This document shows, piece by piece, positions 4,897-55,700 of a stretch of 64,000 nucleotides of DNA. The stretch spans positions 421 through 64,420 of the forward strand of contig JANLIR010000007.1 of assembly GCA_024654025.1 (NCBI GenBank), given 5' to 3'. The notes under the pieces were generated by a model, which was given only the letters and a program-made list of their open reading frames with translations, did no database searches and was not told where the DNA came from. Every line of letters starts with the position of its first letter. Position 1 is the stretch's first letter. The position numbers were made by a program, and so were the translations under genes. This DNA is from Candidatus Wolfebacteria bacterium (lineage in GTDB: Bacteria; Patescibacteriota; Minisyncoccia; UBA6257; UBA9933).

Positions 4897-5049
4897 ATAA
4901 TTCCATGTGTAATTTGTAGGGGGCAGCCATTTGGTTTGCCCCTCATTTTTTTGACAATGCATAAGAATTTTGGCAGGATAAGGGCAGTATTTCGGCTTAA
5001 TTTAATAAGGCAGAATTGATTACAAATTTAAGAATAAAAGGGGAAAGCC

Positions 5050-9195: not shown

Positions 9196-9322
9196 CATTC
9201 GACTGACTCAGGTCTTCGACTCCCTCGGGACTGAGTCCTCGGGACGAACGTCCGAGACTCAGATCTTCTGATTCAGAGAATCATCAGATTCGATGAACTC
9301 GAGGAGGTTGTCCTGAGTTAAT
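9196..9322. repeat. GC-rich highly palindromic element (REP/RPE-like or structured leader) upstream of 9365 gene
   Basis: local GC spike in AT-rich DNA; nested inverted repeats e.g. CTGAGTCCTCGG...CCGAGACTCAG (12-bp stem), TCTGATTC...GAATCATCAGA, GTCCT...AGGAC; shares 'TTCGACTGA' and 'AGGAGG..GTCCTGAG' with the uvrC insert. Confidence 0.4.
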
Positions 9323-9364
9323 TGAAGGACAAAAATGGTCGTAAAATAATTAAAAAAAATAAAC

Positions 9365-10645
9365 ATGAAAAAGAAATTATTAGCATCAATACTAGCAGGG
9401 CTTACAATTCTAAGTTTGGTCGCGTTTGCGCCATTTGCTTCGGCGGATAGGGGCGGTCGGGAGGACAAGAGAGGAGGTCGGGATCGAGATGATGACAATC
9501 TTAATCTTAATCGCGGCCAGATGATTTCTTCGTTTGTCCGCGGTCTCAACAGCGGTCCGGGCAGTATCAACAGCGGCCGGGATCGGGACGACGACGACGA
9601 TGATGATGATGAGGATCTTAACGATAGAGACGAAAACAGAGGTCGAGGGAATGTCGGGGCTGGTATTAGCGATGGCAGAATCCAGGCATTAGAGAGATTA
9701 ATAGTTCTTATCCAGGAACAAATTCAGATTTTATTGGCGAGATTGAATGAGCTTAGGGGGGACGTTAATACTGTTTTGACAATTTCTTCCGTTGCGGCAA
9801 CCGAGATCAAAATAACTGAAGCAAAGGTTGTCTGGTTAACAAGCAGATCGGCAGACAGCAAAGTTTACTTTAGCACGGCTTCGCCCGTTGATCTTGCTAC
9901 CGCGCGAACAAAGTCTAAGGGAGGCCTTGAATTCAGCCACAGAGTCAGTTTGGATGGATTATCTCCAAATACCACTTATTTCTTTATTGTTGAATCAAAG
10001 GACACTTCCAACAATGTCGTTCGATCAGCGCAGTTTTCTTTCACTACCTTATCTGTCGGCGTTGATAATGCCGCTCCGATATTATCTTCTTTGATTGTAA
10101 CTAACATTGCTTCAAGCTCGGCAGAAGTTAAATGGGTTACCAACAAATCCGCCACAAGTAAGGCCTACTTTTCAACTAGCTCCCCGGTTAATTTAGGAAC
10201 AGCTTTAACTGTTGTGGACGCCAGTTTGGTGACCAGCCATTCGTTGAGGCTGACAGGACTTAGCGCCAGTACGACTTACTTCTTTGTAGTTGAGTCATTT
10301 GACGCGGCGAGTAGTGTTACAAGGTCAGCGCAGCTTTCCTTTAACACGGTATCCGCGGCCGCGCCTGTTATTTCGGTGATTTCCGTTTCGGGCTTAAGTT
10401 CGTCAACGGCTACAATTTCCTGGACAACCGATACGCTATCTACGAGCAAAGTTTACTTCTCGACCAGCACTCCGGTTAATGTTTTGAGCGCTCAGACTGC
10501 ATCAAGCAGCGCTCTTGTTACAAGCCATTTAATAGTTTTAACAGGGCTTAGCGCCAATACCAATTATTACTTTGTAATTGAGTCTGTTGACGTAATAAGC
10601 AATGTGAGCCGGTCAAGTCAGTTTTCGTTTCTGACCACGCTTTAA
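9365..10645 (+). CDS. secreted protein: signal peptide, poly-acidic region, coiled segment, three tandem FN3-like domains
   Basis: signal peptide; 'DRDDDDDDDDEDLNDRDENRG'; three ~100-aa repeats each ending 'TTYFF(I/V)VES.D...V.RS(A/S)QFSF.T'. Confidence 0.6.
   Translation: MKKKLLASILAGLTILSLVAFAPFASADRGGREDKRGGRDRDDDNLNLNRGQMISSFVRGLNSGPGSINSGRDRDDDDDDDDEDLNDRDENRGRGNVGAGISDGRIQALERLIVLIQEQIQILLARLNELRGDVNTVLTISSVAATEIKITEAKVVWLTSRSADSKVYFSTASPVDLATARTKSKGGLEFSHRVSLDGLSPNTTYFFIVESKDTSNNVVRSAQFSFTTLSVGVDNAAPILSSLIVTNIASSSAEVKWVTNKSATSKAYFSTSSPVNLGTALTVVDASLVTSHSLRLTGLSASTTYFFVVESFDAASSVTRSAQLSFNTVSAAAPVISVISVSGLSSSTATISWTTDTLSTSKVYFSTSTPVNVLSAQTASSSALVTSHLIVLTGLSANTNYYFVIESVDVISNVSRSSQFSFLTTL
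9587..9616 (+). repeat. (GAY)10 trinucleotide microsatellite in coding sequence (poly-Asp)
   Basis: gacgacgacgacgatgatgatgatgaggat. Confidence 0.8.
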
Positions 10646-10676
10646 AAGCTGTTAGAAATTAGAATTTGAACAATAA

Positions 10677-10728
10677 AACAACAAGAAAACCGCTTTAAGC
10701 GGTTTTCTTGTTGTTTCCTTTGTTTTGT
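10677..10728 (+). terminator. rho-independent terminator (long stem)
   Basis: AACAACAAGAAAACCGCtttaGCGGTTTTCTTGTTGTT + T-rich. Confidence 0.75.
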
Positions 10729-10845
10729 GGTTTTGTGAAAACTTGTTTTCTAAAACGTCTTATTTTGGTATGATTAAAGCAAGCAAGCTTTTTTGCAAAG
10801 CTGATTGTCAAAGGTCGAGCTGAAAAAAATTACACACAATTTAAA

Positions 10846-11388
10846 ATGAATAAAAAATTATTTGCAAAGATTTTAGGCGTGGCAATGATTGCGGTTTTAG
10901 CGGTTGTGGCTTTAAATGTGGCTTTTGCGGAAAATGACAATTCTTCAACGTCAGCCGTAAAATCAAAAGGCGGTACGTTGGGATGGGGTGAAATGAAGAA
11001 GCTTTCTGACTACGACAAAGAAGAAAGTAAAAGCGGCCAAGCGGTTATTATAAGAGCTAACGGCGATTTCCGAGTTAACGGCGTAACTGCCAATTCGGTG
11101 AATGCTTCTTCCAGCTTAATAAACGTTACGTTTTTTAATTTTACAAGAGACGTTAATGTTTCCGGAGCTAAAATAATGGGTGGAGGAAGGGCAATTTCTC
11201 TCTCTGATATTCAGGCTGGAGACAAGTTAAATGCCGCCGGCAATTATAACGCTTCAACTAAAGTTATAACTGTTTACGAGATACAAGACATCACTGCGCG
11301 CACGCAGAATATTTCCGAAATTCAGAAGAGAATCCAGCAATTAATGGATATGATTAATGCGCTTAAGGCTAAGTTGGGAATACAGTAA
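10846..11388 (+). CDS. secreted hypothetical protein
   Basis: signal peptide; no recognisable domain; terminator CCCCCCTCCGActtaaTTCGGAGGGGG at 11399-11436. Confidence 0.5.
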   Translation: MNKKLFAKILGVAMIAVLAVVALNVAFAENDNSSTSAVKSKGGTLGWGEMKKLSDYDKEESKSGQAVIIRANGDFRVNGVTANSVNASSSLINVTFFNFTRDVNVSGAKIMGGGRAISLSDIQAGDKLNAAGNYNASTKVITVYEIQDITARTQNISEIQKRIQQLMDMINALKAKLGIQ

Positions 11389-11684
11389 AGAAAATTTTAA
11401 CCCCCCTCCGACTTAATTCGGAGGGGGTTTTGTTTAGGTTTTTTGGGGCCGGTCGGAGCTTCGGTTTTTAATTTCGCCACAGATTTCGTCCCAATTTTGA
11501 ATTCCTTGAGGATTTTAAGGAAATAGACGAGTTTTATGCAGGGTATTGCTTTATTTTCTTTTATGTGTTAACCTTATTTCATAGGGTAAGTGTTCTCGCG
11601 AATGGTTTTAAGGCGACAATGTTTTAATCGGTCTTAATTAAAACCAGACGGGGGTTGGTCGCCTTACAATACAAAAATCAAAAA

Positions 11685-12023
11685 ATGGCTAAGAAATTAT
11701 ATGTCGGCGGGTTGCCTTATACGACCACCGATGAAGAATTAAAATCCAAATTTTCCGAATTTGGTTCAGTCTCGTCTGCCAATATCATTACTGATAAATT
11801 TACCGGCAGATCACGCGGTTTTGGCTTTGTTGAAATGGAAAACGACGAAGAGGCTCAGAGCGCGATTGAGAAATTGAATGGTTCGGATTTTGGAGGAAGA
11901 AATCTTACTGTTAATGAAGCAAAGCCGATGGGAGAAAGAGCGCCGCGAAAGAGTTTTGGCGGTGGCGGACGAGGAGGATTCGGCGGAGGCAGAGGGAGAG
12001 GAGAAGGAGGTAATTGGCAGTAA
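11685..12023 (+). CDS. RNA-binding protein (RRM domain, Gly-rich C-terminus)
   Basis: 'KLYVGGLPYTTTDEEL...RGFGFVEM' RNP2/RNP1 motifs; the ATG at 11685 is preferred over the track start 11655; terminator at 12038-12076. Confidence 0.8.
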   Translation: MAKKLYVGGLPYTTTDEELKSKFSEFGSVSSANIITDKFTGRSRGFGFVEMENDEEAQSAIEKLNGSDFGGRNLTVNEAKPMGERAPRKSFGGGGRGGFGGGRGRGEGGNWQ

Positions 12024-19407: not shown

Positions 19408-19688
19408 AATCTCCCCCCTTATGTGACTGCGATTTTTTTAGAGCTTTACCATATATAATTTAAAAAAAGCTCAATGTCAATAAACAAAAAAAACAAAAAC
19501 CGCCTCCTCACAAGACGGCCTTTGCTTTTTTCTTTGGTAACACAAAGAATGCATTACCTTTTGATTGATAAGTTAATTATATATCCGCCATTAATTGCGT
19601 CAACCCCCGCATTTTTTACCGGATTGTGGATAAAAAAATTCCGATATTTGCCTTAAATATGAAGAATATTATATAGTTATGTTGATAT

Positions 19689-20831: not shown

Positions 20832-21281
20832 TTATCGAGTTACTGAAATTATTGCTGTTTCTGGAGTTAATTCTGTATCTGGAGCGGCAACCGTGACTCT
20901 TCTGGTTGCTGGATCGTAAACCACGGTATATCTGGTTGATGTCGCGGTTCCGTTTGTTGGGTCAACAGGCATAGTGGAAACATAAGTAGGAACTATACAG
21001 CTTTGTATGTTATAGAAGCTGGTTCCTATTTCTGTGGTTGATGTAGGAAGTGAAGCGCCAGCAATCACGCAAGTAAAGTTGCCTTTGTTGTCAACTTGGT
21101 TTTGGCTGATTGCGTTCAAAATCGTGTTAACATTGCTCCATCTTTGGGTGTTTCTTGCCTGGGCAAACTGTCTGCCCGGGTTTAACGCGACTATAACGAC
21201 TCCGGCTAAAATCGCGATAATGCCGATAACGACCAGTAATTCGATTAATGTAAAACCTTTGCTTTTCATTTTGTGTTTCAT
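20832..21281 (-). CDS. type IV pilin (prepilin N-terminal methylation motif)
   Basis: 'KGFTLIELLVVIGIIAILAGVV' class III signal peptide; start may be the second ATG (MKSKGF). Confidence 0.75.
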   Translation of the reverse strand: MKHKMKSKGFTLIELLVVIGIIAILAGVVIVALNPGRQFAQARNTQRWSNVNTILNAISQNQVDNKGNFTCVIAGASLPTSTTEIGTSFYNIQSCIVPTYVSTMPVDPTNGTATSTRYTVVYDPATRRVTVAAPDTELTPETAIISVTR

Positions 21282-21379
21282 TTTGTGTCTTTTTCTTGAA
21301 TCTCGACCTTTTATCGATATTAATTATATTTTAGCAAAGTATAATTCATTGGGCAAAACAACTTATCCACACCCAGCTC

Positions 21380-35163: not shown

Positions 35164-36498
35164 ATGTCAAATTTGTTATTAAAAGCAAAAAAATTTCCGC
35201 TAACACCGGGAATTTATATGTTTTTAGACGCTAAAAAGAAGGTGCTTTATGTTGGCCGGGCGGTTTCTTTGAGAAAGCGTATTTTGAATTATTTCCAGAA
35301 AAATTTGTTGGACCAGAGGATAAAAGAAATGGTTTTTTTGGCGCGCGACATTAAATATAAAAAAAGCGAAAATCTTTTAGACGCAATTGTTTTGGAGGCG
35401 AATCTTATAAAGAAATATTGGCCGAAATACAATATAAAAGATAAGGACGACAGGTCATTTGTTTATGTCGCGATTTCAAAAAAAGATGATTTTCCGAAAC
35501 CGATTATTGTACGGGGCAGGGAAGTGGGGAAAATTTTGTCTGAACCGGTTAATTCTCAAATTCTCAAGAACATTGGAATAAACAAAATTAGCGTAAGGAA
35601 ACAGATGCAAATATTTGGACCATATCAGTCATTGCATTTAATAAAAAACGCATTAAAAATTATTAGAAAGATTTTTCCATATAGCACTTGCAAAATTGGT
35701 TCGGGAAAGCCGTGTTTTGATTATCAGATTGGACTGTGCCCGGGCGCGTGCGTCGGAGCTATTTCAAAAAAAGACTACAAAAAAAATATTGAAAACATAG
35801 CGCAATTGCTTAAAGGAAATAAAAAAAGATTGCTGAAAAAACTAAAAAAAGAAAATCCTAATCAGGCGATGGCTTTGGAGCACATTCAAGACGTTGCTTT
35901 GTTAAGCGGATCGGAGTTTGAAAATTTTAAATTGAAAATTGAAAATTCCGCGAAGCGGATAGAAGGATATGACGTTTCTCACCTAGCCGGAAAAGAAACT
36001 TACGGATCAATGGTTGTTTTTGCAAACGGCGAAGCGGATAAAAGCCAATACCGGTTGTTTAAAATTAAAAGCGCGCCGGCAAACGACGACTTGCGGGCTT
36101 TGGAAGAAATTATTTTAAGGAGATTTAAACACGACGAATGGCAAAGGCCAAACTTAATTTTAATAGACGGCGGCCGGCCGCAAATAAGTTTTGTCTCAAA
36201 AGCGCTAAGAAATAAAAATATAAATATTCCTTTGGTCGGCATTTCTAAATACAGGAGGACTCGTCCTGAGGGCGTTCGACTGAGCCCTTCGGCGGTGAGC
36301 CGTTCAGGACGGTCGAACCGCTCAGCCGAAGTCCGTGTCGAAGGAGATGAATTAGTTTTCCCGCTAGGCATGAAAAAACCAACAAGAGAATTGATTGAAA
36401 ATATCAAAAGTATTTTGTTAAAAGTTCGCGAGGAGGCGCATCGATTTGCGTTAAAATCCAGCAGGCGCAAAAGAGGGATGTTGATAAGTAATTTCTAA
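35164..36498 (+). CDS. uvrC: excinuclease ABC subunit C (short; no C-terminal HhH module) carrying a ~30-aa in-frame insert
   Basis: GIY-YIG N-terminus 'PGIYMFLDAKKKVLYVGRAVSLRKRI', UvrBC-interaction and RNase-H-like endonuclease regions; insert 'YRRTRPEGVRLSPSAVSRSGRSNRSAEVRVEG' between conserved 'LVGISK' and 'DELVFPLG'. Confidence 0.85.
   Translation: MSNLLLKAKKFPLTPGIYMFLDAKKKVLYVGRAVSLRKRILNYFQKNLLDQRIKEMVFLARDIKYKKSENLLDAIVLEANLIKKYWPKYNIKDKDDRSFVYVAISKKDDFPKPIIVRGREVGKILSEPVNSQILKNIGINKISVRKQMQIFGPYQSLHLIKNALKIIRKIFPYSTCKIGSGKPCFDYQIGLCPGACVGAISKKDYKKNIENIAQLLKGNKKRLLKKLKKENPNQAMALEHIQDVALLSGSEFENFKLKIENSAKRIEGYDVSHLAGKETYGSMVVFANGEADKSQYRLFKIKSAPANDDLRALEEIILRRFKHDEWQRPNLILIDGGRPQISFVSKALRNKNINIPLVGISKYRRTRPEGVRLSPSAVSRSGRSNRSAEVRVEGDELVFPLGMKKPTRELIENIKSILLKVREEAHRFALKSSRRKRGMLISNF
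36250..36345 (+). repeat. GC-rich palindromic in-frame insertion inside uvrC (RPE-like)
   Basis: local GC ~65% within AT-rich gene; inverted repeats GTTCGAC...GTCGAAC, GGAC..GTCC, CTTCGGC..GCTCAGCCGAAG. Confidence 0.55.
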
Positions 36499-36552
36499 TT
36501 TTTGAGGAATTTAGATATAATCAATAAACGGTCGATAAAGATGAAATAATAT

Positions 36553-36792
36553 ATGACAAAAAATCTTAGCACAATCGATAGGATAATCAGATTAATAATT
36601 GCCCTAGGATTATTATATGTAGCGTTTGCTTATTACCAAACTAATTTTGTTTTAGCTATAATAGCTTTTGTTTTAGCACTCGGAACCGCGATCACCGTAA
36701 TTACCGGGTTTTGTATTGTTTATAAACTTTTTGGAATAAGCACAAGAAAAGATCAAGGTGGTTCATCGTTTCCGTCGCAACCTATGCAGTGA
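36553..36792 (+). CDS. DUF2892 (YgaP-like) small membrane protein
   Basis: 'IDRIIRLIIALGLLY' + second TM with 'GFCIVYKLFGIST'. Confidence 0.5.
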   Translation: MTKNLSTIDRIIRLIIALGLLYVAFAYYQTNFVLAIIAFVLALGTAITVITGFCIVYKLFGISTRKDQGGSSFPSQPMQ

Positions 36793-50033: not shown

Positions 50034-50065
50034 AAAATCTCCCGATACCGGGAGATTTTATTTTA
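50034..50065. terminator. bidirectional terminator (tRNA-Ala + / response regulator -)
   Basis: TCTCCCGataCCGGGAGA with T-runs on both strands. Confidence 0.65.
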
Positions 50066-50444
50066 CAAACGTTTTGACTTTTGATACGAGATCATCGATT
50101 GAGGTTTTTGCCTTCACGAAATATTCTATTGCTCCAAGTTGTTTGCTTTTTTGAATATCCTCGGGCTGGCTTAAGTTGGAAATAATAATAACCGGAATGT
50201 CTATTTTATCGCTTAATTCCGGATCGGATTTTATGTCTTCCATAATTTCAAATCCGGACTTTTTAGGCAGAATAATATCCAAAAGGATAAGATTCGGCGT
50301 TGAAGATTTTAAAAATTTAATCGCTTCTTCGCCGTCTTTTGCCACCAGCACTTCAAAATTCTCCTTTTGGAGACGATTTTTTAAAAGCGAAGATAAAAAC
50401 GGTTCGTCTTCAATGAGTAATATTTTTTTCGGTTTTCCTGCCAT
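50058..50444 (-). CDS. single-domain response regulator (CheY-like receiver)
   Basis: 'ILLIEDEPF', 'ILLDIILPKKSG', 'PVIIISN', conserved K in 'YFVKA'. Confidence 0.85.
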   Translation of the reverse strand: MAGKPKKILLIEDEPFLSSLLKNRLQKENFEVLVAKDGEEAIKFLKSSTPNLILLDIILPKKSGFEIMEDIKSDPELSDKIDIPVIIISNLSQPEDIQKSKQLGAIEYFVKAKTSIDDLVSKVKTFVK

Positions 50445-50502: not shown

Positions 50503-50619
50503 GTTGGAAATTTTTTGGTTGCCCCAATACTCTCGCTTTAGGCGAGAGAGTCGAGACATAAGGCTCCTCGACTAACACCTGTGTCCGCAAAGCGGACATC
50601 GATCAATTTTCGAATTTAA

Positions 50620-52150
<1,531 letters not shown>

Positions 52151-52382
52151 ATGCTAAAGCTCAAGCTTATATAGCGAAGAAAATCTAACAACCAGTACTG
52201 ATTATTAGAAATCCTTCGCCAGCTTGAAGTTCAGCATTTTTGTCCTTCGACAAACTCAGGACAATCCTGAGTAGCATCGAAGGATTGGGACAACCAAAAA
52301 AGTTCCAACTTTTTTTGGTTTTAATAAGCATCGATTGTTAAAGTCCTTTCCATGTTCAGCTCATTTTTTTCAGAGCCTACTT

Positions 52383-52546: not shown

Positions 52547-52726
52547 TCAACCCTTTTCGATTAAATGTGGATAAGTCTATTTGAGTTCTTGCGGCCTATG
52601 CTATAATAAAAACAATATCGAAACCGCAGTATTTTGTTTCGATTTTAAATAATTTGAAAAGGTCGAGATGAAAATCTACAAGTCGATTAATTTTTTACAG
52701 AAATAAAAAAGGAATAAAAATAATTC

Positions 52727-53302
52727 ATGAAAAAAGGATTTACATTGCTTGAGCTTTTAATTGTTATTGGTATTATCGCTATTTTAGCGTCAGTTGTCGC
52801 TTTGGTGTTAAACCCGGCTGAACTTTTGAGGCAAGCCAGAGACGGCCAGAGAATTTCCGATTTCGATACATTAAGGACCGCGATTAATTATCACTTGTCA
52901 ACCGGAACCAGTCCCGACACCAATCTTGGAGGCACTGGCTTGGCATACAGAAGAAGTCTTGCTGCCGCGAATTGTCCTTTTGCTTCTTCTTCCGCGTGTA
53001 CGGCAATTACAACCACTGCGTCAACTACCATTGATGGAACTGGGTGGGTTAACGTGAACTTTAATGATGTTGGAGGCGGCACGTCTCCTTTGACAATTCT
53101 TCCAATAGACCCGACTAACACTTTAACCTATTACTATACTTACGCTGGGGACGATTCACCTAACCTGTTTGAGCTTAATAGCAGATTGGAAAGCACCAAA
53201 TACAGGATTAAAATGACGCAAGACGGAGGAAATCAAAATGGCTGTTCTACTTATACCGAACCCACCTGTTACTACGAAGTCGGTACTTCAGTGACTCTCT
53301 AA
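52727..53302 (+). CDS. type IV pilin
   Basis: 'KKGFTLLELLIVIGIIAILASVV' class III signal peptide, 191 aa. Confidence 0.8.
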   Translation: MKKGFTLLELLIVIGIIAILASVVALVLNPAELLRQARDGQRISDFDTLRTAINYHLSTGTSPDTNLGGTGLAYRRSLAAANCPFASSSACTAITTTASTTIDGTGWVNVNFNDVGGGTSPLTILPIDPTNTLTYYYTYAGDDSPNLFELNSRLESTKYRIKMTQDGGNQNGCSTYTEPTCYYEVGTSVTL

Positions 53303-53987: not shown

Positions 53988-55700
53988 ATGTTAACAATTC
54001 CTTCTCAAAAACTGAAAGATTTTTTGGTAAAAGACGGTTTAATAACCTCGGATAATTTTGATGTAATAGAAAAAGAAGCCAGCCGGCTTAATCAAAACTT
54101 GTCCGAAGTTCTTGTTTCTAGAGGCGTTCTTACAACAGAATATCTTTATTCGCTCCTTAGCAATTATTTGGGCGTTGAACCGGTTAATTTAAGCGCTAAT
54201 CCTATAGACGAAAATGTTTTAATGAAAATTAGCGAAAAGCTCGCTCGTCAAAAAAAAGTCGTGCTTTTTAAAGAAGAGGCCGGGGGCGTTTATGACGCCG
54301 CTATGGAAGATCCTAGTGATTTGAAAACCATAGATTTTTTAGAAAATTCTTTAAACGTAAAAATAAAACCCTTTTTGGCAAGGCCGGCGGATCTGGAAAG
54401 GGGATTTGCCATTTATAACCGCCAGTCATCCGCGGACTTTCAAAAAATAATCGAGGAAAATATCAAAACCTCGCTTTCTATCAAAGAGGACAAAATTGAA
54501 AAGATTGCCCGGGAAATGCCCATTGTGGCGATTGTTGAAAATTTTATTGCTTACGCGTCCGCGACTCGAGCTTCGGATATTCACATTGAAGCGCTGGAGG
54601 ATATGGTTTTGGTTAGATTTCGGATAGACGGCGTTCTTCATGAAATCGCTAAAATTCCCAAAGATGTCCACCCGGCGATTTTGGCGAGAGTTAAACTTTT
54701 GGCGGCGCTTAAACTTGACGAACATTATAAACCGCAAGACGGCAGATTTCGTTATCAGTTATCGGAAGCGGTTTTAGATATGCGCGTTTCGATTATCCCG
54801 ACTTTCTACGGCGAAAAAATTGTTTTGCGTTTACTTCCGGCCGCGCAGAAACCGCTTGCTTTGGAAGAAGTTGGCATGCTTGAAGATACCGTAAAAGTTG
54901 TTAAAGAAAATATTGTTAAAACTTACGGAATGATTTTGGTTTGCGGTCCTACCGGTTCAGGGAAAACGACAACCATTTATTCGATTTTAAATATGCTAAA
55001 TAAGCCCGAAGTCAACATTGTTACAATTGAAGACCCGATAGAATACTCGGTTAAATATATTAACCAAACACAAGTAAATGTTTTAGCCGGAGTGACATTT
55101 GCCAATGGGTTAAGATCGATATTAAGACAGGATCCTAATATTATCGGTGTAGGCGAAATCCGCGATGAAGAAACAGCTGAAATCGCGGTTCACGCCGCTT
55201 TGACCGGACATTTAGTGCTTTCAAGTCTGCATACTAACGACGCGCCAACGACAATTCCGCGTTTAATTGATATGAAGATCCCGCCGTTTTTGGTCGCGGC
55301 GGTTTTAAATTTAATAATCGCCCAAAGATTGGTTCGGAAAATTTGCTCAAACTGTATGGAATCTTATTCTACCCCGCCCGATCTTTTAAAAAATCTTGAA
55401 AAATTAAAATCCGAATCCAATTTATCAGCCGAATATCAAATACCTAAAACGTTATTTAAGGGAAAGGGTTGTAATGTTTGCGCCAATACCGGCTATCGGG
55501 GAAGAATGGGTATTTATGAAGTTATGCAAATAGACAACGAAGTCAGGGCGGAGATGGCAAAAACCGATTTTTCTTTGACGAATTTAACTAATCTAGTTCG
55601 TAAAAAAGGTATGATAACAATGTTTGAGGACGGTTTGCGTAAAGCCGCGCTGGGATTGACTTCGGTCGAGGAGGTAATGAGGGTTATAAGAGAGGAATAA
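53988..55700 (+). CDS. pilB: type IV pilus assembly ATPase PilB/GspE (full length with N-terminal domain)
   Basis: Walker A GPTGSGKTTT, 'TGHLVLSSLHTNDA', tetra-Cys CSNC...CNVC; paralog of 28185-29402. Confidence 0.9.
   Translation: MLTIPSQKLKDFLVKDGLITSDNFDVIEKEASRLNQNLSEVLVSRGVLTTEYLYSLLSNYLGVEPVNLSANPIDENVLMKISEKLARQKKVVLFKEEAGGVYDAAMEDPSDLKTIDFLENSLNVKIKPFLARPADLERGFAIYNRQSSADFQKIIEENIKTSLSIKEDKIEKIAREMPIVAIVENFIAYASATRASDIHIEALEDMVLVRFRIDGVLHEIAKIPKDVHPAILARVKLLAALKLDEHYKPQDGRFRYQLSEAVLDMRVSIIPTFYGEKIVLRLLPAAQKPLALEEVGMLEDTVKVVKENIVKTYGMILVCGPTGSGKTTTIYSILNMLNKPEVNIVTIEDPIEYSVKYINQTQVNVLAGVTFANGLRSILRQDPNIIGVGEIRDEETAEIAVHAALTGHLVLSSLHTNDAPTTIPRLIDMKIPPFLVAAVLNLIIAQRLVRKICSNCMESYSTPPDLLKNLEKLKSESNLSAEYQIPKTLFKGKGCNVCANTGYRGRMGIYEVMQIDNEVRAEMAKTDFSLTNLTNLVRKKGMITMFEDGLRKAALGLTSVEEVMRVIREE

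Follow-up and report, generated by a model that had tools for sequence, protein, structure and literature searches.

A start-codon-anchored leader motif of pilin and other genes in Parcubacteria without an anti-Shine-Dalgarno sequence is complementary to the apical loop of 16S rRNA helix 26

A stretch of 64,000 nucleotides of a Candidatus Wolfebacteria contig, referred to below as the window, carries two genes for type IV pilins (PF07963), here termed pilin B and pilin C, and one for secreted protein A, which has a signal peptide and falls in no Pfam family. By the homologs of its pilins the window belongs to the Patescibacteria/Parcubacteria, close to Candidatus Wolfebacteria; the carriers of the motif treated here are tiny bacteria of groundwater. 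A short motif lies 5' of each of these genes (Table 1). A first-pass annotation of the window had described it as one 11-mer present in three places, each just upstream of a pilin or secreted-protein gene. The places and the character of the genes are as described, and all three copies are intergenic and in the sense orientation; the count has to be amended, since the exact 11-mer AAAAGGTCGAG occurs twice, before pilins B and C, and the third site (10809-10819, +) reads CAAAGGTCGAG, the sequence common to all three being the 10-mer AAAGGTCGAG. The 9-mer AAGGTCGAG occurs three times in the window against 0.36 expected, three or more being reached in none of 100 shuffles, and the intergenic share of the window amounts to just 6.6 kb. 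By itself, a 9-mer that occurs three times within a single window is evidence of modest weight; it is the comparative evidence that is decisive.

Related sequences stand before further genes of the window. The weaker relative that had been noticed before the gene at 9365 is GGTCGT, kept in orthologs at the same place; GGTCGC precedes the gene for an RRM_1 RNA-binding protein, an additional copy precedes the gene for a YgaP-like membrane protein, and a degenerate second copy follows the first in the pilin B leader. As to the neighbourhood of these sites, the gene preceding secreted protein A has its terminator at 10676-10716, and pilin C has another in-frame ATG at 21269.

Table 1. Motif copies, predicted promoter elements and 16S rRNA features of the window. 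Distances to ATG are counted from the motif; GG denotes the first two bases of the motif core.
Feature	Position	Strand	Remarks
Motif variant GGTCGT (AAAAATGGTCGTAAAAT)	9337..9342	+	22 nt to ATG of the fn3 / purple-acid-phosphatase-N protein gene, 9365-10645
Putative -10 box of gene A, TATGAT after TGG (TGgTATGAT)	10769..10774	+	38 nt 5' of GG
Motif copy A, AAAGGTCGAG	10810..10819	+	Core GGTCGA 10813-10818; 27 nt to ATG of the secreted protein A gene, 10846-11388 (+)
Motif variant GGTCGC	11657..11662	+	22 nt to ATG 11685 of the RRM_1 RNA-binding protein gene, 11685-12023
Motif copy C, AAAAGGTCGAG	21302..21312	-	Core 21308-21303; 21 nt to ATG 21281 of the pilin C gene, 20832-21281 (-)
Putative -10 box of pilin C, TATAAT	21323..21328	-	14 nt 5' of GG
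Extra motif copy, AACGGTCGAT	36527..36536	+	17 nt to ATG of the YgaP-like membrane protein gene, 36553-36792
16S 3' trailer element, UUGAUCGAUG	50597..50606	-	UCGA begins 22 nt past helix 45
16S rRNA gene	50613..52150	-	3' tail GGAAUAAUUAAAUU instead of GGAUCACCUCCUUU; gene ends ...GUGCGUGGAAUAAUUAAAUU
16S helix 26 hairpin	51276..51305	-	Apical loop UAUCGACC 51294-51287; from Rfam SSU alignment, model hairpin 819-848
Putative -10 box of pilin B, TATAAT	52602..52607	+	A 36-nt hairpin insert lies between box and motif
Motif copy B, AAAAGGTCGAG	52657..52667	+	Core 52661-52666; 60 nt to ATG of the pilin B gene, 52727-53302 (+)
Degenerate second copy, AAGTCGAT, pilin B leader	52680..52687	+	40 nt to ATG; AAGTCG kept in L062-L064

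The motif is widely conserved in relatives. For pilin C, represented by 53 genome loci from Wolfe-, Jorgensen-, Yanofsky-, Harrison- and Azambacteria and others, GGTCGA is present in 41 of 50 distinct upstream regions of 150 nt, where shuffles give a mean of 1.15; for pilin B, represented by 79 metagenome loci, it is present in 35 of 61 such regions (shuffle mean 0.64). The reverse complement, TCGACC, appears in one of the 50 and in none of the 61. In the close relatives of the window's pilin B (L062-L064) GGTCGA is invariant, and the degenerate second copy differs in L064, in which AAGTCGT replaces AAGTCGA; tandem copies are frequent in this family, at 9 of 87 leaders. Among five orthologous leaders of secreted protein A, AAAGGTCGA is the sole invariant block from the -10 box to the ATG, and every ortholog fetched has the motif core. 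The aligned leaders yield a sharply bounded consensus, (A/C)AAGGTCGA followed by any base except C, with GGTCG as its invariant core; for 60 nt in either direction there is no other conserved block. The observation is thus real and, the 11-mer count excepted, far stronger than the window alone could show.

Carriers of the motif on the sense strand belong to at least seven unrelated gene families. Exported or membrane proteins predominate: the two pilin families, secreted protein A, the fn3 protein (variant GGTCGTAAAAT in orthologs L054, L056, L059 and L061), a cupredoxin-like membrane protein and the YgaP-like membrane protein. The proposal that the motif is a leader element of a pilus or secretome regulon therefore stands as regards conservation and concentration on pilin and exported-protein genes, but not as regards restriction to them: a cytoplasmic RRM protein carries it, as GGTCGC 22-23 nt from the ATG in eight orthologous leaders, as do a small HNH-like protein, at 23 nt, and a cold-shock protein, whose near-match with one G fewer, AAAGTCGAG, lies about 24 nt from the start. 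Some 2% of non-pilin genes have the motif, so it is not the general initiation signal of these organisms and most genes must initiate otherwise.

The position of the motif is set by the start codon. Measured from the last base of the hexamer, the distance to the ATG of pilin genes peaks at 21-23 nt (four, seven and five leaders at 21, 22 and 23 nt respectively), and the same peak emerges independently from non-pilin genes (nine at 22 nt and four at 23 nt, over a background of 0-3 per position); the antisense control has no comparable peak, with four at 22 nt and 0-8 elsewhere. Spacers shorter than 17 nt are almost absent. Long ones are found in many leaders (median 42 nt, up to 169), among them the two of the window's pilin B; with hairpins removed, spacers have a median of 25 nt and shuffled controls one of 21, which does not amount to a difference.

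Upstream there is a strong -10 box (TATAAT or TATACT) at a median distance of 14 nt from the motif (IQR 10-21), which places the motif within the transcript, near its predicted 5' end. The distance to the box ranges from 0 to 53 nt, with values of 33-53 nt for the gene A family and for the clade of the window's pilin B, and hairpin or MITE-like inserts are tolerated between the two (L001, L116, L118 and L124); the 36-nt hairpin of the window's pilin B leader is missing from L062. In the presumptive gene A promoter, TGgTATGAT reads as an extended -10 box, and orthologs keep the -10 region, as TATGAT or TATAAT, the TG being variable. Scanning for promoters by consensus yielded little, because these promoters lack a good -35.

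Proximity to the -10 box might point to an element acting in DNA just past the transcription start, either a repressor operator or a promoter-proximal element for RNA polymerase or a NusG/RfaH-like factor: most copies follow a strong -10 box at a distance of 4-24 nt, inside the polymerase footprint, and a TGTGGATAA/TTATCCACA box frequently accompanies them 5' of the -10. We nevertheless consider such an element very improbable. The motif is strictly in sense orientation in unrelated gene families, it is kept when the -10 box is 33-53 nt away and after MITE insertions, and it has neither dyad nor second half-site within 60 nt on either side; that is, we found none of the fixed position relative to -10 or -35, the dyad or repeat, and the strand independence that mark operators and promoter elements. 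Moreover, it is present where there is no promoter. At one locus (L145/L146) a copy internal to an operon lies 22 nt before the second pilin gene, in an intergenic gap of 31 nt, and in L125, where the pilin ATG likewise follows at 22 nt, it lies within the last codons of the preceding response-regulator gene. These arrangements leave no room for a promoter, and the motif is therefore independent of promoters; its anchor is the start codon and not the -10 box. Orientation, start-codon anchoring and promoter independence together argue for a function in mRNA linked to translation initiation, and count against a DNA operator. That the motif is an mRNA element tied to initiation we regard as probable. 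Two further DNA-level candidates were discarded, a sigma-28, ECF or sigma-H-like promoter hexamer because no fixed-distance partner exists within 60 nt on either side, and a DNA uptake sequence because the motif is far too rare and too position-specific.

Translation could be involved in another way. The first-pass annotation had pointed to short frames behind the motif (CTG...TGA, ATT...TGA and a 12-codon ATG ORF), two of them ending in a TGA that overlaps the main ATG, and these frames are indeed present as sequence. The motif might accordingly be taken for a Shine-Dalgarno-like site coupled to an upstream ORF start, translation being passed on to the main gene by termination at the ATGA overlap; all three frames of the window, and an ATG after the motif, shared by the four closest pilin B leaders, would suit this. 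Across lineages, however, the triplet after the motif is mostly TTT, TAA or TAG, and even among L062-L064 and the window 1-nt indels shift the frame and its stop, so that the frames lose the significance suggested for them: neither a start codon nor a reading frame after the motif is conserved, as would be expected of an upstream ORF or leader peptide. The TGA overlap follows from the common ATG-AAA/AAT start being read in another frame. Nor does the organism have an anti-Shine-Dalgarno sequence with which to read AAAGG, and we give this reading next to no credence.

This last point derives from the 16S rRNA gene of the window, whose 3' tail, GGAAUAAUUAAAUU, replaces GGAUCACCUCCUUU; the organism thus lacks the anti-Shine-Dalgarno sequence. 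CCUCC is missing from the 16S 3' end of the window and from all 22 distinct 3' ends recovered, and GGAG or GAGG lies upstream of only 5 of 50 window genes, 2.3 ± 1.3 being expected. Classical or stabilising Shine-Dalgarno pairing of the motif with the 16S 3' tail was rejected accordingly, for there is no CCUCC, no complementarity and the wrong spacing. Loss of the anti-Shine-Dalgarno sequence in a subgroup of Parcubacteria has been published already, together with the observation that helix 26, which contacts the Shine-Dalgarno helix, is unusually conserved in that subgroup, in a role not known (PMC9297842). How start codons are chosen without the anti-Shine-Dalgarno sequence, and why helix 26 is conserved in Parcubacteria, were stated there as open questions (PMC9297842).

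It is in the apical loop of helix 26 that a partner for the motif is found. The hexamer UCGACC, rRNA positions 859-864 (51292-51287, -), is the sole Watson-Crick complement of GGUCGA in the 16S rRNA of the window. In ten aligned helix 26 sequences the 11 pairs of the stem are 100% paired, with compensatory changes in 8 of the 11, a level of covariation reached in 0 of 500 shuffles; UCGACC is invariant in these ten and in the further helix 26 sequences recovered. The full loop is the complement of GGUCGAUA, a form that the motif takes in many lineages and at 36530-36537 of the window, where GGTCGATA, in the extra copy, provides the full 8-nt complement. Calculated duplex energies are -8.4 kcal/mol for GGUCGA with UCGACC and -10.5 for GGUCGAUA with the loop, set against -7.0 for GGAGG with CCUCC; the energies of the motif duplexes are within the Shine-Dalgarno range.

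Several results bear on how far this complementarity may be pressed. The bases flanking the core bring no clear extension of the pairing, position +6 being U in 41% and G in 35%, and the conserved upstream AAA cannot pair. The best duplex of the motif with 16S rRNA plus trailer, at -13.2, is no better than those of shuffles (-10.4 ± 1.8). No compensatory change links motif and loop, because the loop hexamer is invariant in every 16S sequence recovered. Some 6-mer complement is to be expected in a 1.5-kb 16S rRNA with a chance of about 0.3, and the match was discovered post hoc; the argument for helix 26 therefore rests on the location of the match, the invariance of the loop and the independent evidence of spacing. 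Motif accessibility, as unpaired probability, did not differ from that of shuffled-flank controls (p = 0.18), no conserved RNA structure accompanying the motif was found, and Rfam 15 at gathering score gave only rRNA and tRNA matches in the window and 21 loci, with no family at the motif. A likeness to AGGUCG at the tRNA variable-loop/T-stem junction, some of the locus matches being tRNA genes, was set aside as coincidence.

Pairing in trans at the helix 26 loop has precedents: helix 26 of 18S rRNA, at the mRNA exit, pairs with the IIId loop of the HCV IRES and with the Gtx element (PMC6316650), and in Lactococcus lactis 100S ribosomes the tips of helix 26 pair with each other (PMC5620043). 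The palindromic UCGA of the loop could instead be kept for such dimerisation of ribosomes through helix 26. We suggest that AAGGUCGA may be a specialised translation-initiation element that works by pairing of GGUCGA with the helix 26 loop, a proposal to which we would give just under an even chance.

The 16S transcript holds a second sequence of interest. In the 3' trailer, the position occupied by UUGAUCGAUG in the window reads (G)GUCGA(U/C) in other lineages, and of 22 distinct trailers 13 have TCGA or TCGG beginning 21-25 nt past helix 45; one clade has the element as AAAGGUCGAU, behind an inserted hairpin that displaces it to 46-63 nt. The block after the 16S gene was also considered as the start of 23S rRNA and rejected, there being no LSU match and a protein gene beginning within 165-260 nt. 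The trailer element could reflect cis pairing of the precursor tail with helix 26, a relocated anti-Shine-Dalgarno sequence, or a site shared with a protein or RNase.

A relocated anti-Shine-Dalgarno is conceivable because the palindromic UCGA, helped by G-U wobbles, would permit pairing with the mRNA motif. The partner would then be UCGA(U/C)(C/U) in an extended 16S tail, whose greater length would match the longer spacer (22 nt as against about 7), and several of the trailers, reading UCGAUC, UCGACC or UCGACU, are able to pair with all six bases of GGUCGA. The trailer of the window, UCGAUG, yields only five pairs, however, and the positions facing the invariant GG vary (UG, CA, UA and CG in the window, L064, L076 and L141 respectively), whereas the helix 26 loop offers an invariant CC; the displacement in one clade also speaks against this arrangement, and the element may be lost when the 16S 3' end is processed. 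We judge it distinctly unlikely.

The presence of the same sequence in 16S trailers, where processing must occur, and in mRNAs, near the predicted 5' end of most transcripts, would also be accounted for by a ribonuclease recognition or cleavage site, or a 5'-proximal stabiliser, common to pre-16S RNA and mRNA and defining a processed, stable 5' end. Such a site does not predict the sharp distance of 21-23 nt to the AUG, nor operon-internal copies exactly 22 nt before the next start codon, and we know of no nuclease with a specificity of the GGUCGA type; it too appears quite improbable.

Of a different kind is the possibility that the motif is bound in trans by an RNA-binding protein, such as the conserved RRM_1 protein of 11685-12023, which would control the translation or stability of pilin and envelope mRNAs and regulate its own synthesis through GGUCGC. 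The motif has much that such a site would have, being short, of single-stranded type, sense-only and often duplicated in tandem, with 13-56 nt between the two copies; GGTCGC is kept at its place before the RRM gene in eight orthologs, this gene adjoins two motif-bearing genes in conserved synteny, and the 16S trailer, having the motif as well, could be another target. That the RRM gene is itself preceded by the motif is as compatible with an autoregulating RNA-binding protein as with the initiation element proposed here, and high expression of the RRM gene would also account for the motif there. Binding by a protein would, on the other hand, make coincidences of both the sharp preference for 21-23 nt before the AUG and the exact complementarity to an invariant rRNA loop, unless the protein mimics or blocks that very contact. 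We regard it as unlikely.

Comparison with known systems helps to place the helix 26 proposal. Like the Shine-Dalgarno sequence, the motif is a short sense element of the leader, with a preferred distance from the start codon that holds inside operons as well, complementary to a conserved single-stranded part of 16S rRNA near the mRNA exit and with similar duplex energy (-8.4 here versus -7.0). It differs in its proposed partner, which is the apical loop of helix 26 and not a CCUCC-bearing 3' tail, in its spacer, with a mode of 21-23 nt and not 5-10, in its sequence, GGUCGA and not GGAGG, and in being present on only a few per cent of genes.

Elements complementary to internal 16S sequences have been proposed before as enhancers of highly expressed bacterial genes, namely epsilon of phage T7 gene 10, the cspA upstream box and the downstream box, the last of which was later disproved. 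To our knowledge, none of these proposals involved phylogenetically conserved, position-locked motifs across a phylum; the present case differs from them in strong conservation and spacing and in the absence of the canonical Shine-Dalgarno system. CsrA/RsmA sites (GGA, often two per leader) resemble the motif as short, conserved and often duplicated leader elements of mRNAs for surface structures, but here the core is GGUCGA and not a hairpin-loop GGA, hairpins do not consistently present it, and the element, instead of overlapping the ribosome-binding site, is locked 22 nt before the AUG and hardly ever comes closer than 17 nt. The closest parallel in mechanism is with HCV domain IIId, whose GGG contacts CCC of helix 26, and with the 9-nt Gtx element, where mRNA-helix 26 pairing at the exit site recruits the small subunit by a non-canonical route (PMC6316650); as in those cases, the motif is complementary to the apical loop of helix 26. 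Those systems are eukaryotic or viral, and the IIId contact consists of 3 bp made by a structured IRES loop, whereas here a linear element of 6-8 nt in the leader would pair with a bacterial helix 26 loop. A literature search on the motif sequence and on CPR promoter and RBS motifs found no earlier description.

In the mechanism that we favour, AAGGUCGA would act in mRNA and not in DNA, from within the 5' leader, where 21-23 nt is the preferred distance to the AUG. Its users would be a small set of genes, probably highly expressed ones: major pilins, the RRM protein and several envelope proteins. Most likely, GGUCGA would base-pair with the invariant UCGACC of the helix 26 apical loop and so dock the 30S subunit 5' of the start codon, standing in for Shine-Dalgarno/anti-Shine-Dalgarno pairing; some 22 nt of spacer, compared with about 7, is what a docking point further out than the Shine-Dalgarno cleft might be expected to need. 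The conservation, strand specificity and start-codon anchoring of the motif, the lack of CCUCC and of Shine-Dalgarno usage, and the exact complementarity to a loop that stays invariant on top of a covarying stem are shown by the data; that this pairing forms on the ribosome and stimulates initiation we infer. More broadly, and as a tentative proposal that falls somewhat further short of an even chance, the Parcubacteria subgroup without anti-Shine-Dalgarno may have evolved a second system of mRNA-rRNA recognition, in which GGUCGA(UA) of the leader, about 22 nt from the AUG, and the invariant helix 26 loop UAUCGACC would load ribosomes on the most highly expressed mRNAs, and in which the trailer of the 16S precursor, having the same sequence, may fill the site in cis before it is processed.

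The motif is thus a concrete candidate, an mRNA element of 6-8 nt with a defined rRNA partner and a defined spacing. If the proposal holds, ribosome docking in bacteria would have a second natural solution, and helix 26 docking of the HCV IRES type its first bacterial counterpart; the pairing would account for the unusual conservation of helix 26 in Parcubacteria that lack the anti-Shine-Dalgarno, would bear on gene calling and the prediction of expression in the very large uncultured CPR group, and would offer a design principle for orthogonal translation. Even should the helix 26 idea fail, the element is a marker of the major pilin and of a small set of co-regulated genes in many candidate phyla, and so offers a way into the regulation of organisms not yet open to cultivation.

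The 3' tail of the 16S rRNA lacks the anti-Shine-Dalgarno sequence CCUCC, both in the window and in 22 of 22 distinct 16S 3' ends recovered (loci L033, L064, L067, L069, L076, L080, L101, L126, L130, L140, L141 and L143 among them), and no Shine-Dalgarno enrichment was found among window genes; loss of the anti-Shine-Dalgarno in a subgroup of Parcubacteria has been published already (PMC9297842). A conserved (G)GUCGA(U/C) begins in the 16S 3' trailer 21-25 nt past helix 45, or at 46-63 nt instead in loci of the L080 type. Its sense matches that of the GGUCGA motif in the mRNA leaders, and it is complementary to the apical loop of 16S helix 26 (h26); next comes a conserved block that consists of AAGGUGUU and a hairpin whose loop is GAGCCU. 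The h26 loop also contains a self-complementary UCGA, and an alternative explanation for conservation of the loop, distinct from its complementarity to GGUCGA, would be kissing between the h26 loops of two ribosomes through this UCGA, as has been modelled for the 100S particles of L. lactis (PMC5620043).

The 16S gene stands in a conserved order, 16S rRNA, receiver-only response regulator, B-type pilin, pilB/pilC (loci L074, L080, L097, L141, L143 and others), in which no 23S gene follows 16S; the 16S-regulator segment lies in inverted orientation with respect to the pilin in the window's lineage.

Leaders with GGTCGA are often accompanied by a perfect DnaA-box 9-mer, TGTGGATAA (reverse complement of TTATCCACA), all four window copies of which are intergenic. 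It occurs in 15/50 upstream regions of the pilin C family and 14/61 of the pilin B family, vs 0.09 and 0.05 in shuffles, and in related loci it precedes the pilin promoter's -10 box by ~18-31 nt, in either orientation. It looks like a transcription-factor site, for DnaA or another factor.

Two small intergenic repeats appear to be MITE-like insertions, which are seen in pilin leaders of other lineages too. One is a hairpin, TTGTCCTGAGTT..GAAGGACAAAAATG, present twice and in one case inserted in the leader of the fn3 gene at 9365; the other, AAAGGTGC(G/T)GGG, is present five times. In one group of related loci (L015, L016, L027, L030, L034, L037, L039, L040, L043 and L044, two of them named Yanofskybacteria) a conserved hairpin comes after GGTCGATAG; its stem sequences covary and its palindromic loop is CCAUGCAUGG. 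There is no Rfam match, and this may be a lineage-specific structured leader. The palindrome GAAAACTTGTTTTC stands just ahead of the -10 region in gene A, which encodes a secreted protein, and is largely kept in gene A orthologs; the neighbouring fn3 gene is preceded by a related TTTTGTAAGAAAAC..CGTCTAATATT architecture; together these look like a shared operator.

Coordinates of the features, in the window unless stated
Feature	Position	Strand	Remark
16S 3' tail without CCUCC	50613-50640	-	16S 3' end sequence
Trailer (G)GUCGA(U/C)	50597-50606	-	also L033, L067, L069, L076, L091, L122, L141, L143
h26 loop	51287-51294	-	contains self-complementary UCGA
Synteny members	50058-50444; 50613-52150; 52727-53302	-; -; +	
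DnaA-box 9-mer	52566-52574	+	perfect, intergenic
DnaA-box 9-mer	21371-21363	-	perfect, intergenic
DnaA-box 9-mer	19625-19633	+	perfect, intergenic
DnaA-box 9-mer	6535-6527	-	perfect, intergenic
DnaA-box variant TGTTGATAA	about 36479-36487		
TTGTCCTGAGTT..GAAGGACAAAAATG	about 9300-9336	+	intergenic repeat
TTGTCCTGAGTT..GAAGGACAAAAATG	about 52230-52270	-	intergenic repeat
AAAGGTGC(G/T)GGG	about 52425; 52530; 15190; 41560; 41260	-; +; +; +; -	intergenic repeat
GGTCGATAG and CCAUGCAUGG-loop hairpin	about 4900-4990 of the loci		pilin leaders
Palindrome GAAAACTTGTTTTC	10738-10751	+	
Pilin C tandem duplication	21292-21269	-	
GGTCGA inside pilB	55664-55669	+	also L026, about 1238

A 12-nt sequence, ACACAAAATGAA, is duplicated in tandem where pilin C starts, which gives in-frame ATGs at both 21281 and 21269; the motif is 21 nt from the first of these, and in relatives it is 23 nt from a single ATG. 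A further GGTCGA falls within the final codons of pilB, which encode ..SVEEV.., 35 nt before the pilC start in the window and 20 nt before it in L026. It could be a coding coincidence, or could serve a dual use as an internal initiation signal.
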